Position numbers and translations under genes: made by a program. Shown here piece after piece: positions 120 to 26,802 of a stretch of DNA of 64,000 bases. The stretch comes from a virus. Each line of letters starts with the position of its first letter. Positions within the stretch are counted from its first letter, which is position 1. The notes under the pieces are model-generated. The model worked only from the letters and a program-made list of their open reading frames with translations, was not told the DNA's origin and ran no database searches. The stretch lies in IMG/VR virus record IMGVR_UViG_3300032242_001916, positions 1 through 64,000 of that record; one strand, given 5' to 3'.

Positions 120-599
120 ATGAATAACAGTTCACACGCATTAAATGCGTTAACTAAAAAAGGCTTTAAGATACCAAACCAGCCAGCATATGAAATACCA
201 GCGCTACCTGTGGATATCACAGAGTTGCATGACGAAGATCTCATGGAGCTGTTTGTTACCTTGACTAGTTGGACTGACTACGTAGCACCCCAGGTTGCTG
301 TTGCAGCAATTGACGAGCGTGAATGCGATCGTTATGTTTCTGTATTAGAAGCCACAGCTATGGTAAACAACTGGAAAGGTGGCAGTGGCGATCGTGTAAC
401 TATCGCTAAAGCCAATATCCTTCTAGACCCAAAGGTCATAGAAGCTAAGCAAGAATTAGACGAGAAGCACGCTTACCGTAAATTGGTAGAAGTATTGCTG
501 CAAAATCTAGAGCGAGATGCTGCATTGGTATCTCGTGAATTAACTCGTCGTACGTCAGATAGTGGTGTAAAAGCCCGTTCACGGAGGTACTCAGTATAA
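120..599 (+). CDS. helical hypothetical protein (possibly UvsY-like recombination mediator)
   Basis: ORF track 48..599; likely start ATG 120, coupled (TAATG) to a 38-aa ORF at 4..120; coiled-coil-like and near the resolvase. Confidence 0.45.
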   Translation: MNNSSHALNALTKKGFKIPNQPAYEIPALPVDITELHDEDLMELFVTLTSWTDYVAPQVAVAAIDERECDRYVSVLEATAMVNNWKGGSGDRVTIAKANILLDPKVIEAKQELDEKHAYRKLVEVLLQNLERDAALVSRELTRRTSDSGVKARSRRYSV

Positions 600-1045
600 T
601 GGGATACTTTAAAAAGTTAGCAGCAACAAATCGTATAGGCGAAAATTTACAGCGATTTGATATTAGTGTACTAGAAGAAAATATAAGGGCTACTCTTCCA
701 CAGGTACTAGAAAATGTACTTCAAGACTACATTTTAGTGTGTGAAGAAGATTGCTGCGAAGACCAAGCTCAAATAAACATACGAGAAATAGCAGATGCCG
801 TTATCAATGCCTTGCTAGTAGATTTTATTGACACAATTAAAACCGAAATTGTAGACGTATATGAAGAGCAATTAGTAAGCATGCGTAAAGAACTTTCTTG
901 GGGTAGGGACAAGCACGATCCTTACACTCCATCAACCACTGTTTCAAAAGCAAAAACTTATATTAGTCAGACAAAGCCAGGGGGGCATTCTACATCATGG
1001 GACAAGAACAGCAAAATATATTACGACAAGCCGAAGCACTCGTAA
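599..1045 (+). CDS. hypothetical protein
   Basis: 148-aa ORF coupled to the upstream stop. Confidence 0.6.
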   Translation: MGYFKKLAATNRIGENLQRFDISVLEENIRATLPQVLENVLQDYILVCEEDCCEDQAQINIREIADAVINALLVDFIDTIKTEIVDVYEEQLVSMRKELSWGRDKHDPYTPSTTVSKAKTYISQTKPGGHSTSWDKNSKIYYDKPKHS

Positions 1046-1299
1046 GTGGAGCTAGGCAAGCAGCCTATGACCATCCGTTAGATAACTTCAACCGTACTGC
1101 AAAGATCTGGGAAGTAATTTTAGGTGTAGAGGTCACTGCAGAACAGGTAGGACTTTGCATGGTTGGCTTAAAGCTAGCACGCGAGGCCTACACACATAAA
1201 GAAGATAACCTAGTAGATGCTGCAGGATACTTACACACAACTGATTTAGTAATCAAAGAACGGGAGATACGAAATGGCGACAAACCCAAAAATCTTTGA
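997..1299 (+). CDS. DUF6378-family / dNTP diphosphohydrolase-like protein
   Basis: R.AAYDHP..NF...AKIW...LKLARE......DNLVDAAGY pattern. Confidence 0.75.
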   Translation: MGQEQQNILRQAEALVSGARQAAYDHPLDNFNRTAKIWEVILGVEVTAEQVGLCMVGLKLAREAYTHKEDNLVDAAGYLHTTDLVIKEREIRNGDKPKNL

Positions 1300-1837
1300 T
1301 GGTGGGTTAAAAAATGGGGCAAAATGCTGGATGGGGATAGATCAATCCCTAACCGGCTTTGCCGTTACCTTTATAGACAAAGACGACAAGTATATGACTT
1401 ATGTCTACAAGGCAGAGGATACCGGGATTAAACGGCTGTTTAATATCGAAACCTGGCTTTGTGACTTACTAAAAAAGTATAAGATCATAGACATTGCTTT
1501 AGAGTCTCCAGTTAAGATGTCTCATGCAGCTATTATCTCCGGAGAACTTTACGCCACAGTGCGCCTAGCGTTGTATAAGAACTGCAAAGAGCCTGGACGT
1601 GCTCCTTTACAAGTTGCTCCCCCCGTACTAAAGAAGTATGTAGCCGGTAAAGGAACTGGAGTTCAAAAAAACCAAATGCTTTTACAGGTATATAAAAAGT
1701 GGGGCGTAGAGTTCAATGACGATAATGCCGCAGACTCCTATGGGTTGGCACGTATTGTTAGGGGCAACTATGACCACAAATACGAAGAAGACATAATAAA
1801 TAGCCTTAAGGACCCTAAGTTCCGGGATATAGTGTAA
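1274..1837 (+). CDS. ruvC: RuvC-like Holliday junction resolvase
   Basis: GIDQSLTGFA, ALE, LKKYVAGKG, DDNAADSYGLA acidic catalytic motifs. Confidence 0.85.
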   Translation: MATNPKIFDGGLKNGAKCWMGIDQSLTGFAVTFIDKDDKYMTYVYKAEDTGIKRLFNIETWLCDLLKKYKIIDIALESPVKMSHAAIISGELYATVRLALYKNCKEPGRAPLQVAPPVLKKYVAGKGTGVQKNQMLLQVYKKWGVEFNDDNAADSYGLARIVRGNYDHKYEEDIINSLKDPKFRDIV

Positions 1838-1886
1838 AGTTTTCTTAGAGGGCGCTCAATAATCGGAAAACTAAGGAATAATAATC

Positions 1887-2168
1887 GTGAGCGAAACACA
1901 AGAAGACGACAAATTCTTACGGGTTGGTGGCGGTTCAAACGCACAGTCCGTAGGATCAGCTATAGCGCATGCGCTATACGAAACCCCGGTCGTAAAGATC
2001 AGAGCAGTTGGGGCTTCAGCAGTTAATCAGGCTGTTAAAGCAATAGCAATTGCACGAGGCTACGTAGCCCCAAGAGGTCTTGATCTGGTTTGCAAGCCCG
2101 GCTTTACTACTGTAGAGTCTAGGGAAGGCAAGATTTCAGCAATTGTTTTTACAATTACTGCCAGTTAA
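1887..2168 (+). CDS. spoVS: SpoVS-family (Alba-like) nucleic-acid-binding protein
   Basis: SVGSAIA...RAVGASAVNQAVKAIAIARG...KPGF...ISAIVF closely matches SpoVS; AAGGA RBS. Confidence 0.9.
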   Translation: MSETQEDDKFLRVGGGSNAQSVGSAIAHALYETPVVKIRAVGASAVNQAVKAIAIARGYVAPRGLDLVCKPGFTTVESREGKISAIVFTITAS

Positions 2169-2233
2169 CACTGATAAATTAAGCCGTAAAGCTTACGGTT
2201 TACATATAAACTCTATTCTAGAATGAGGTAAAA

Positions 2234-2605
2234 ATGGCTAATTCGTCAGAAGACGTAGATGCAGCCCTAGCCGGTATGGCAAAAGTCGGTGCACCACGCG
2301 TTCCTATGGGTACTTCGGCAATTGATGAAACCTACTATGCTTCGGCAAACACAGGTAATCAGCATCTGATGCCCCGTGGAAACGTACAGGCAGGAGACCC
2401 AACCGCAGGAGAAATGCCCGCTCATCGTACAAACGTACAGCTCGGTGCAGATCGCCTTGGTGCAAAGTACACAGTTGTTACTAACACTGTGATTCCTACT
2501 GCTCCAGAAGCTGGCGCTACACAGGCAAGTGGACGTATCGTTCCACCTAAGACTATCCGCAGCCGTGAGTCATTTGACGACGGTATGGGATCGTCTTACA
2601 ATTAA
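2234..2605 (+). CDS. hypothetical protein
   Basis: GAGG RBS, followed by a terminator. Confidence 0.7.
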   Translation: MANSSEDVDAALAGMAKVGAPRVPMGTSAIDETYYASANTGNQHLMPRGNVQAGDPTAGEMPAHRTNVQLGADRLGAKYTVVTNTVIPTAPEAGATQASGRIVPPKTIRSRESFDDGMGSSYN

Positions 2606-2641
2606 TATATAATTAAATAATAACTAAATAGCTTGTATCGT

Positions 2642-2665
2642 GGTGGCCCGCAAGGGCCACCCTTT
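2642..2665 (+). terminator. intrinsic terminator
   Basis: GGTGGCCC-GCAA-GGGCCACC then CTTT. Confidence 0.7.
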
Positions 2666-2691
2666 AATTGGGATAACACACGGAGGTCACT

Positions 2692-2931
2692 GTGCTAGCA
2701 GAAGCACTAAACGAATTTAAAACCAAGCGGTTAATGGAAGTTAAGCGCTGTATTGTAGGGGAATGGTCAGAAGCATTATCTGACGATGACCAGCAAGTAT
2801 TGAGCGAAGCTATGATGGATTATTCCATCTCTAATCGCCAACTATTAATGATTTTACGTAATGCAGGGGCATCTTTTAGCCTAGAAGCAATCCGTCGTCA
2901 TCGTAACGAGGAGTGCCCATGTCGAGTTTAG
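2692..2931 (+). CDS. small HTH-like protein upstream of the phosphoesterase
   Basis: GGAGG RBS; C-terminal RRHR...CPC. Confidence 0.65.
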   Translation: MLAEALNEFKTKRLMEVKRCIVGEWSEALSDDDQQVLSEAMMDYSISNRQLLMILRNAGASFSLEAIRRHRNEECPCRV

Positions 2932-3941
2932 GTGATGAATTAACAAAGCTACGCCTAGACATTAACTTGGCAAAGCCACAACCTGCTCCCTCCTGGCCTG
3001 TAATTCAGCCAGCAAAGCCAATAGTAATCAAGCAACAGCCAAAGCCTAAAAAAGCCCCTGCCCTTGTAGGTGGCTGGAAGACCGCAGTTGTATTGCCCGA
3101 TCCACAGATAGGCTATCGCCAGTTTGAAGATACTGGCCTGGATCCTTTTCACGATGAAGCAGCTATGGACGTAGCTATTCAAATTCTTAGTGCTGAGAAT
3201 CATGATAGTGGGGTGCATCAGGTTGTAAATCTTGGAGATTACATTGATCTTCCAGCACAAGGTAAGTACGAGCAGGAAGCTTCGTTTGCTTTTACCACTC
3301 AGCATGCAATAGACCGGGGCAGCCTATTTGCCGCAGAGCAGCGTGCTGCAGCCCCAAATGCAAAAATTGTTATCCTTGAGGGTAACCATGACCGCCGTAT
3401 GCAAAAATTTGTACAGGCAAATGCCTTATCTGCTTTTGGATTACGTCGTGCCAACCTGCCAGACTCTTGGCCAGTAATGTCAATGCCATATCTTCTTCGT
3501 CTAGACGAGTTTGATATTGAATATATCGATGCTTACCCAGCAGGGGTTTGGTGGATTAACGACAAACTTCGGGCTATTCATGGAGATAAGGTTCGTAGCA
3601 ATGGCTCAACTGCCAATGCTTACACAGCCGATATGCCGCATATCTCAACAGTCTTTGGCCATATTCATCGCCAAGAAATTCAGTCTAAAACTACTTTTGA
3701 CCGCCAGGGCAAGATCAAGGCTATGGCAATTAGTCCAGGGTGTCTATGCCGTGTAGACGGTCATGTACCTAGTGTCAAGGGTTCTGTAGACTCCGCAGGT
3801 AAGCCAGTAACCTATTGGGAAAACTGGCAACAGGGAGTCGCAGTCATTCGTTATAAGGATGAAGGCTCATTCCATGTGGATCTAGTTCATATTGATGAGG
3901 GCAAAACTCTTTATAAAGGTCAAGAATTTATCGCCAAGTAA
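2919..3941 (+). CDS. calcineurin-like metallophosphoesterase
   Basis: LPDPQ, NLGDYID, EGNHD, IHGD, FGHIH motifs. Confidence 0.9.
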   Translation: MSSLGDELTKLRLDINLAKPQPAPSWPVIQPAKPIVIKQQPKPKKAPALVGGWKTAVVLPDPQIGYRQFEDTGLDPFHDEAAMDVAIQILSAENHDSGVHQVVNLGDYIDLPAQGKYEQEASFAFTTQHAIDRGSLFAAEQRAAAPNAKIVILEGNHDRRMQKFVQANALSAFGLRRANLPDSWPVMSMPYLLRLDEFDIEYIDAYPAGVWWINDKLRAIHGDKVRSNGSTANAYTADMPHISTVFGHIHRQEIQSKTTFDRQGKIKAMAISPGCLCRVDGHVPSVKGSVDSAGKPVTYWENWQQGVAVIRYKDEGSFHVDLVHIDEGKTLYKGQEFIAK

Positions 3942-25857: not shown

Positions 25858-25938
25858 TTACTTACCTCCCTTTTTCTTAGGTTCGACTGGTCGTCTTTTA
25901 TTGGCGACCACTAACGATAGGACAATCTTTTTGTCCAT
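25858..25938 (-). CDS. 26-aa basic microprotein (MDKKIVLSLVVANKRRPVEPKKKGGK)
   Basis: AAGGGG RBS, fills the gap, not in the ORF track. Confidence 0.45.
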   Translation of the reverse strand: MDKKIVLSLVVANKRRPVEPKKKGGK

Positions 25939-26057
25939 AAGCACCCCTTTACTATGCTAGTGAGCAGTTTATACACATGCTCAGGTGTTACCTATACTTC
26001 GACATCCTTTGGTGATAGGTAACCAGTCAGTCTTTTATAGTCATCCTTAGGACTATG

Positions 26058-26216
26058 CTTATTAAGTGCGGAATCGATTGGTACTTTCGCGCCCCGTCCG
26101 ACGTTGGGTTGGGTTTTTACGGCCAACCTGCAACTCTAACTCGCCTATTCATCATCATGGTATACCTAGTAAACTTTCACAACTAGTAGTGACACCGGTG
26201 ATCGCTCTCCTATAAG
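26058..26216 (-). ncRNA. ~160-nt structured RNA, copy B
   Basis: CUUAUAGGAGAGCGAU...CGAUUCCGCACUUAAUAAG; homologous to copy A. Confidence 0.7.
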
Positions 26217-26255
26217 CAAAACTAATGAGCCAGTTTATAGTCATGGCTCAGGACT

Positions 26256-26423
26256 CTTATTAGGAACGGAATCGTTGTAGGCTTTCGACGTAGCCGGGCA
26301 CGTTGTGGAGGGTAAAACCATTGCACATATACCACGGTCTAGCTACTTGCTCGCGTTTCCAGCATGCTCGTTGTTAGTTTTACCCGTAAGAACAGAGGCA
26401 CTACGTAATCGCTCCCCTATAAG
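26256..26423 (-). ncRNA. ~168-nt structured RNA, copy A
   Basis: CUUAUAGGGGAGCGAU...CGAUUCCGUUCCUAAUAAG. Confidence 0.7.
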
Positions 26424-26471
26424 TCTGTGCAGTTTAGAGACATGCAGGTCATCAGCTTTTGATTACTTGAG

Positions 26472-26568
26472 CGCCTAATCAAGTTGCCTCCGTTATTTAT
26501 ACTCGCTGAGGCTCATGCCCTAGCATTTGTACGAGTCTTCTACCGTTCGACATTGCGGCTACTAGGCG
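26472..26568 (-). ncRNA. pseudoknotted RNA candidate
   Basis: CGCCUA/UAGGCG closing stem; ACUCG/CGAGU followed by AUAAAUA; GCCUC/GAGGC. Confidence 0.45.
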
Positions 26569-26574
26569 AAGTTT

Positions 26575-26802
26575 TTAATGTATTTTGTTATAGTTTGTAT
26601 ATTTAATTGGGGTTGGATTAGTTTCATCAATCATAATCAAACTATTACCATTACGAAGTAAGTCCATAGTTGGACCATCAAGCCACGTAAGGTCTTCAAT
26701 TGGCACGTAATGTTCCTTATCCCACTTAGCAGCGTACCTTTTGCTGGTAGTGTAACGGAATACACGGTAATTGATTTTTATCTTAAAAAGGAAATCTTTC
26801 AT
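26575..26802 (-). CDS. hypothetical protein
   Basis: GGAGG RBS. Confidence 0.6.
   Translation of the reverse strand: MKDFLFKIKINYRVFRYTTSKRYAAKWDKEHYVPIEDLTWLDGPTMDLLRNGNSLIMIDETNPTPIKYTNYNKIH

Follow-up and report, generated by a model that had tools for sequence, protein, structure and literature searches.

A compact H-type RNA pseudoknot of 27–30 bases, here called the knot, is repeated within an array of non-coding RNAs on the minus strand of the phage DNA under study. It represents a knot family that is real, very widespread in phages, and uncatalogued, with no match in Rfam. The consensus is NNNC-CU-GAGCA-W-GNNN-NUAAAC-UGCUC. Stem 1 consists of 3–4 bp, loop 1 is C(U), stem 2 consists of 4–7 bp and is usually GAGCA/UGCUC, one base forms the junction, and loop 3 is NUAAAC. 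What is new here is that the knots follow folded non-coding modules instead of stop codons. No paper describing the phage knot was found in the literature, and it goes unmentioned in the text of a catalogue from 2023 that lists 10,006 candidates for viral structured RNAs.

The window, which is the whole 64,000-nt stretch of DNA that was analyzed, belongs to a phage genome of 94.1 kb that has direct terminal repeats and encodes a tail sheath, a portal, and a major head protein. On the minus strand, about 640 nt between the stop codon of an ORF at 26802-26575 and an ATG at 25938 are poor in ORFs, a 44-codon TTG frame being the only one to reach 40 codons. This region contains the array.

All elements of the array are on the minus strand. 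Module X (26451..26572) is a non-coding RNA of ~120 nt that folds into three hairpins, and the stop codon of the ORF upstream (26575-26802) directly precedes it. The 3' element of X is the knot wC (26428..26450; GAC-C(U)-GCA-U-GUC-UCUAAAC-UGC(A)), which has a short stem 2. Module Y1 (26256..26426) is 160–170 nt long, is closed by CUUAU/AUAAG and GGGAGCG/CGUUCCU, and has a divergent interior. Its AUAAG closing strand is directly adjoined by wB (26226..26255; AGUC-CU-GAGCCA-U-GACU-AUAAAC-UGGCUC(A)), whose stem 2 is one C-G pair longer. Module Y2 (26055..26217), with UGCUUAU/AUAAGCA as its closing helix, is the second Y copy, and the decayed knot wD (26029..26054) is placed 1 nt past it. Hairpin Z (25987..26024; GUUACCUAU...AUAGGUAAC) has a 3' strand that continues into stem 1 of the adjoining wA (25961..25988; ACAC-C(U)-GAGCA-U-GUGU-AUAAAC-UGCUC(A)), which is of the consensus form. 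wA ends ~11 nt before a Shine-Dalgarno sequence, AAAGGGG (25950-25944), which precedes a 26-codon basic ORF (25938-25858), the first coding unit past the array. At the closing helices of Y1, Y2, and Z, the knot begins 0–1 nt later. The linkers between a knot and the next module are single-stranded and 4–8 nt long.

Four minus-strand copies had been reported in an earlier, sequence-only reading of this DNA, and the coordinates agree with ours within 1–2 nt. That reading described one copy as degenerate in its second stem. This is wD, with an intact stem 1 AGUC/GACU, a stem 2 that has lost its partner strand, and AUAAAA in place of AUAAAC. The copies had been seen as punctuating two RNAs of 160 nt, and their placement bears this out: wC stands before the first of these RNAs, wB between them, wD just after the second, and wA past a further hairpin.

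Searches with known models and sequences returned little from the region. The Rfam covariance models matched only a tRNA, and one sub-threshold match on the opposite strand of this tRNA, between 25200 and 26900 at E<=10. In the entire window, they matched only tRNAs at gathering scores. A BLAST search with the 1.5-kb array gave 0 matches in 50,697 phage records. Among the sequencing runs listed as containing this phage, none is of RNA. The minimum free energy (MFE) fold of the whole 651 nt was not better than those of shuffled sequences (z 0.63), a measure that is uninformative for pseudoknots. No sigma-70-like promoter was found by scanning the minus strand of the array region. A scan of the window for intrinsic terminators found none on the minus strand, with a weak U-rich tail at wB alone. 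The array is thus probably internal to a long leftward transcript.

The copies in the window are far from what chance would produce. The pattern CCTGN{0,3}CATGNNNNTAAACTG occurs in the 64 kb exactly at wA, wB, and wC, compared with 0.00 occurrences in 100 dinucleotide shuffles. With a structural descriptor applied to the whole 94-kb genome, the same three were the only strong copies. A covariance model, R1, was built from other phages and then scored on the copies in the window. The scores were 46.6 bits for wA (E 5e-11), 27.9 for wB (2e-5), and 21.4 for wC (2e-3), and wD was not reported at E<=1. The sequence-only reading had proposed a descriptor search across phage genomes. In 1.5 Mb of fetched loci, a descriptor with both stems free found 141 sites, compared with 3 in shuffled sequence.

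Pairing and covariation were measured on an alignment of 127 sequences, and they support the earlier proposal of a pseudoknot whose two stems vary with pairing preserved. Paired cells amount to 93.5%, compared with 78.8% when shuffled. Pairing reaches 92.7% in stem 1, where three pairs show 45–60 double changes each. Stem 2 is 94% paired, in sequences collected with a search pattern that fixes this stem. Covariants of stem 2 that the pattern does not fix, namely GGACA/UGUCC, AGACA/UGUCU, AAGCA/UGCUU, GGGUA/UGCCC, and GGGUA/UACCC, came from extra copies on the same contigs and from model matches. The covariation score was 0.384, compared with 0.131 in the shuffled alignment and at most 0.09 with slid partners. 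G-U pairs are frequent, for example 17 at one pair of stem 2, indicating that the structure acts on this strand as RNA. A role at the DNA level, such as a promoter or a recombination site, was ruled out as the primary one by the G-U pairs and the co-orientation with genes. The repeated 20-nt core could still aid recombination of the modules.

The topology is that of an H-type pseudoknot. There are two helices, both covarying, and the 3' strand of stem 2 finds its partner in the stem 1 loop. Loop 1, of 1–2 nt, spans the 5–7 bp of stem 2, and loop 3, of 6–7 nt, spans the 3–4 bp of stem 1, as expected for loops that cross the grooves. The lengths of stem 1 and loop 3 have a constant sum. A C-G pair closes stem 1 in 122 of the 127 sequences. 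The paired bases of stem 2 and all loop bases are conserved far beyond the needs of pairing. The earlier reading had the loop letters CU, U, and UAAAC as fixed, which is correct; across the family, the search pattern and the covariance model partly impose the invariance of the loops. Among the variants found by the model, AAAC and the next U are unchanged, and the U of UAAAC may be A (NAAAAC variants).

Two deviations from the standard architecture were observed. At L057:6626-6672, a 17-nt hairpin is inserted into the one-base junction of the two stems, and the knot is otherwise intact. At L077:4051-4082, L095:1218-1249, L095:3123-3154, and L065:6935-6966, stem 2 is GGGUA/UGCCC or GGGUA/UACCC, and these copies form a subclass. 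In two of them the closing pair of stem 1 is flipped to G-C, a flip that abolishes resistance in the viral element coremin, described below.

The knot was found in at least 120 unrelated contigs of IMG/VR, where the pattern CCTGAGCAN{5,7}TAAACTGCT recovered at least 120 stretches. Nearly all of the matches listed have a complementary stem 1, NNNC...GNNN, and the sequences of these stems differ. Cultured phages with good stems include Roseophage SIO1, Lentibacter phages ICBM1-3, Celeribacter phage P12053L, crAss-like phage cr7_1, and Lactobacillus phage phiEF-1.1. The Clostridium tetani phage phiCT19406B also carries a good knot, with UAAGCA/UGCUUA as stem 2. In Roseophage SIO1, the knot is 8–10 nt past the stop codon of ribonucleotide reductase.

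In prokaryotic genomes, sampled as one per species, stem 1 is paired in 72 of the 125 pattern matches listed. The 72 come from Saccharibacteria, cyanobacteria, Firmicutes, Bacteroidota, Planctomycetes, Chloroflexota, Polynucleobacter, and two Methanobrevibacter genomes. Gamma-proteobacteria account for ~11 of the 53 chance-like matches listed, compared with 2–4 of the 72 with a paired stem 1. In this sample of pattern-limited matches, the figures hint at a depletion of the knot in Gamma-proteobacteria. The knots of the Methanobrevibacter genomes (L189:377-400 and L221:1893-1916), which are archaeal, are well formed and followed by U-runs, indicating that the family extends to archaeal elements. 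The densest array among the genome-collection matches listed is on L220, a contig of a metagenome-assembled genome (MAG) of Selenomonadaceae, with five knots in 3.7 kb (254-3871).

The Chaseviridae phages of E. coli, Erwinia, and Yersinia have elements with perfect loops and stem 2, and a stem 1 of only 2 bp. It is doubtful that they are members of the family. In Erwinia phage Berlingot (L158:401-426), the loop and stem 2 letters are perfect above such a 2-bp stem 1. In phiEcoM-GJ1 (L155:601-625), the element is inside an annotated hypothetical gene of 80 codons, ~200 nt upstream of tRNA-Arg. Matches in Bacillus phages, which share 82% identity within tail genes, were rejected as chance.

Outside this phage, the modules were found in three close relatives alone. 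None of X, Y1, and Y2 has a match in Rfam. Scans of IMG/VR with exact boxes for X and Y found only three contigs, the sources of the loci L002, L003, and L008. Other exact-box matches were in coding sequences or ribosome-binding sites and were rejected as chance. Module X is present only in the window, L003, and L008, and the consensus fold of these three relatives has 7 pairs changed on both sides. The ends of module Y are conserved as CUUAUAGGRGAGCGAU ... CGAUUCCG..CUAAUAAG, and its interior of 65–170 nt diverges freely. The closing helix of Y is kept in 4 sequences.

Each module is linked to its own type of knot. Module X carries a GAC/GUC knot in every occurrence; the copy after it is identical to wC in L008 and is a GAGCA version in L003. 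Full-length Y modules, for example that of L002, carry the AGUC/GACU knot or its decayed form, and L008 also holds the same decayed copy as wD. The short Y-like module of L003 carries a UGUC/GACA knot. The hairpin carries the ACAC/GUGU knot in the window, L003, and L008. L008 keeps hairpin Z in front of this knot type, and L003 has another hairpin there. The order of modules differs between loci: L003 has the Y-like module, the hairpin, and X, and L002 has a single Y. Since each module keeps its own knot despite the reordering, the evolving unit is the module with its 3' knot.

More distant relatives have one knot at the syntenic site, with a 6-bp stem 1 that contains a bulged A. The genes behind this knot are unrelated, with their Shine-Dalgarno sequence and start codon 13–20 nt past it. 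The sites concerned are L021:1880-1967, L027:2510-2604, L014:2556-2650, L005:3020-3111, and L019:1330-1422. Upstream of the knot is a conserved element, GGUUGGU...CCUGAGGUAAAA, in which the CCUGAG and UAAA of the knot recur and which may be a second, related fold. The tiny basic ORF after the last knot is conserved as well. It has 26–28 codons, is rich in K and R, and shows the motif L.L..AN.KR.P.P (window 25858-25938, minus strand; L003:4373-4459).

Across the family, the placement mostly ties the knot to the unit upstream. A same-strand stop codon is found 5–9 nt before stem 1 at 42 of 134 sites and 10–19 nt before it at 19 of 134, and at ~3% (19/~600) of random positions. The distance from the knot to the next start codon is broad. 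The 5–9 nt peak is in the spacer range of frameshift and read-through stimulators. The knot could accordingly be a ribosome-directed element that stalls or insulates ribosomes past the stop codon, either preventing read-through, sliding, or re-initiation or promoting recoding. Coremin itself is a stimulator of -1 frameshifting and an obstacle to scanning and elongating ribosomes (Dilweg et al. 2019, PMC6546385; 2023, PMC10520033, PMC10321173). We consider such a function of the phage knot unlikely. Three of the four window copies follow folded non-coding modules, which have no ORF to terminate, and in crAss-like phages the knot precedes tRNA genes. A consistent extended reading frame past the knots was not found. 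The same spacing would be needed by a 3' cap to stay folded beside a terminating ribosome. As the upstream units in the array are non-coding, the role of the knot cannot depend on translation termination.

Some knots are followed by features of transcription signals. TTTT occurs within 10 nt past stem 2 at 34 of 133 sites (26%), compared with 0 and 5 in the controls, and at least 6 U are in the next 8 nt at 23 sites, compared with 0 and 2. Boxes similar to -10 elements are 8–40 nt downstream at 35 sites and upstream at 17, and at some sites the knot is followed by a U-run and then TATAAT. These data would suit a factor-independent terminator or pause hairpin, formed by stem 2 on stem 1, that marks the 3' ends of transcription units. 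An intrinsic terminator has a GC-rich hairpin and an immediate U-tract, however, and three quarters of the sites are without a U-run. Many knots lead directly to a Shine-Dalgarno sequence and start codon, or to a tRNA. On the minus strand of the window, as noted above, the terminator scan found nothing, and only wB has a weak U-rich tail. Stem 2, with 5–6 bp and three G-C pairs, would be weak as a terminator hairpin, and a terminator would leave the invariant loop letters unexplained. It is therefore improbable that the knot is a transcription signal.

The sequences on both sides of the knot were compared with shuffled sequence. Structure is in excess in the 30 nt upstream (p 1e-7) and not in the 30 nt downstream (MFE -1.98 vs -1.81 kcal/mol when shuffled, p 0.39). 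Hairpins that end 0–3 nt before stem 1 are as frequent as at control positions, and only the general excess of upstream structure stands. Among pairs of unrelated contigs that share one flank, 17 share only the upstream flank and 5 only the downstream flank; counted as independent clusters, these are only ~10 and 4. The orientation of genes did not discriminate between a 3' and a 5' role, with 84 co-directional, 4 convergent, and 7 divergent sites. In crAss-like contigs, tRNA genes start 7 nt past the knot. At four crAss-like loci (L041:4661-4700, L111, L159:401-440, and L248) with the tRNA 7 nt after the knot, a partial repeat, GUAAACUGCUA, precedes the knot.

The likeness to coremin and the placement at unit boundaries suggest that the knot may be a protein-independent exoribonuclease barrier, the most likely of the roles considered, to which we give somewhat less than an even chance. 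If it is, the array could work as follows. X, Y1, Y2, and Z are four successive modules, each with a knot as its 3' element, on what is probably a long leftward transcript. Endonucleolytic cuts in the 4–8-nt linkers would free the modules. Exoribonucleases would halt at the knot mechanically, without a protein. Each module, and the message after the last knot, would then survive as discrete RNAs with defined ends.

The main direction of such a barrier would probably be 3'-to-5', with the knot as a 3' cap for the upstream unit. With the placement mostly tied to the upstream unit, a 3' cap fits better than a 5'-to-3' block, and it is favored by the anchoring to stop codons, the linkage to modules, the sharing of upstream flanks, and the U-runs. 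RNase P cutting at a crAss-like tRNA would leave the knot as a 3' end, which also links the knot to the unit upstream. A 5' shield fits equally well where the last knot in this phage group is concerned, since this knot is always 13–20 nt before a Shine-Dalgarno sequence and start codon.

The sequence-only reading had named RNase J among the enzymes to be blocked. The enzyme was called by the curated cut-off of TIGR00649 in 10 knot-carrying genomes. Four of the 10 have an RNase J over the cut-off and six have no such ortholog, so that RNase J is not a general target. The six are an isolate of Saprospira grandis, four further Bacteroidota MAGs, and Polynucleobacter, where MAGs may be incomplete. 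One of the Bacteroidota MAGs is a Segatella genome with a crAss-like contig. The hosts span bacteria and archaea, and no single accessory nuclease is obvious.

This range of hosts also counts against the knot as a cleavage signal, either a tiny self-cleaving ribozyme or a conserved site for an endoribonuclease, that punctuates transcripts as tRNAs do in mitochondria. The conservation of stem 2 and loop bases beyond the needs of pairing would be understandable for such a signal, as would the position of knots at unit boundaries beside tRNAs and non-coding RNAs. The knot with a hairpin inserted at its junction is reminiscent of the tolerance of modular ribozymes. On the other hand, no ribozyme of Rfam matched, even at E<=10. 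At ~27 nt, the knot is smaller than the natural self-cleavers that are known. Coremin is equally strict in sequence without cleaving. A cleavage signal is thus quite unlikely. Still, the conserved paired bases of stem 2 could reflect a protein or ligand partner, or catalysis, instead of a barrier.

As a nuclease barrier, if it is one, the knot would be the first RNA end-cap described from phages that is both widespread and independent of protein. DNA phages from many phyla would thereby be linked to the strategy that eukaryotic RNA viruses follow with exoribonuclease-resistant RNAs (xrRNAs). A barrier of this kind would explain stable cistrons, tRNAs, and small RNAs on long polycistronic phage transcripts. 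It would also offer a portable 27-nt insulator for synthetic biology. The constraint set by the window is that the knot serves untranslated units, so that its core role is at the level of RNA.

Several known compact folds resemble the knot. The preQ1-I riboswitch (RF00522) is also a ~30-nt pseudoknot of H-type topology with an A-rich 3' tail, the counterpart of loop 3, and is often upstream of a start codon. Many knots are 10–30 nt before a start codon, a position suited to a preQ1-I-like aptamer that regulates the next gene. In contrast to preQ1-I, stem 2 of the phage knot is long, and the Shine-Dalgarno sequence is free and never inside the knot. The junction is a single base, which leaves no ligand pocket like that of preQ1-I. 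Neither RF00522 nor any other riboswitch model matched at E<=10. The downstream genes are mutually unrelated, and many knots precede tRNAs, non-coding RNAs, or promoters. A ligand aptamer is therefore very improbable.

The luteoviral frameshift knots such as that of BWYV, and the gene 32 leader knot of T2/T4, are compact H-type pseudoknots with an A-rich loop 3. Each serves one gene and one function, which is recoding or the autoregulation of gp32. The phage knot shares with them a loop 1 of 1–2 nt over the deep groove of a 5–7-bp stem 2, an A-rich loop 3 of 6–7 nt along a short stem 1, and a single junction base. It differs in its near-fixed sequence across hundreds of unrelated phages and in its presence at any unit boundary, including non-coding ones.

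The stem-loops that stabilize the 3' ends of bacterial mRNAs, such as intrinsic terminator hairpins and REP elements, are plain hairpins of variable sequence. Like them, the knot is just past the ends of genes, one quarter of the knots have a U-run, and both presumably block 3'-to-5' exonucleases. Unlike them, the knot is a sequence-fixed pseudoknot common to many phyla.

The closest likeness is to coremin (xrRNA-C), which is carried by beny-, cucumo-, and other eukaryotic RNA viruses (Dilweg et al. 2019, PMC6546385; 2023, PMC10520033, PMC10321173). Coremin has a hairpin of 3–4 bp with a required C-G closing pair and a loop of the consensus YGAD (4 nt) or YGNNAD (6 nt). In its spacer, GUUAAACUAC, A16–A20 are essential and U13/U14 are tolerant, and a second hairpin directly downstream, hp2, of at least 4 bp, is obligatory for resistance. 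The stem 2 of its Watson-Crick variant, xrRNA-WCC, is GAG/CUC (Dilweg et al., PMC6546385, PMC10520033, PMC10321173). A flaviviral xrRNA stops the bacterial RNase J1 in vitro, indicating that such folds can act on bacterial enzymes.

The sequence-only reading had called the knots xrRNA-like, and part of this likeness stands. Stem 1 of the phage knot is as short (3–4 bp), and is C-G-closed in the proportion given above. The loop starts with a pyrimidine, C, and contains GA. UAAACU is in the same register as the essential residues of coremin, with the same U tolerant. After this U, the phage has paired GCUC and not the AC of the coremin spacer, and the invariance of AAAC-U is partly forced by the search. 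The GAG/CUC of xrRNA-WCC is contained in the phage GAGCA/UGCUC, and both elements are in untranslated or intergenic positions. Other parts of the likeness fail. The phage loop of 8–9 nt (CUGAGCAW) does not follow YGAD or YGNNAD and forms a Watson-Crick stem 2 of 5–7 bp. The C of AAAC is unpaired, opposite the junction base. The obligatory downstream hairpin is not found, as the structure downstream of the knot does not exceed that of shuffled sequence. Since two defining features of coremin, the loop consensus and the downstream hairpin, are not shared, the knot was not classified as coremin. We consider it possible, and only tentatively propose, that the knot is a prokaryotic counterpart of coremin, a self-sufficient end-cap that would cut the transcript into X, Y1, Y2, Z, and a shielded message. 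The knot is carried by DNA phages, prophages, and archaeal elements, in hosts that have no Xrn1, in contrast to the eukaryotic RNA viruses that carry coremin.
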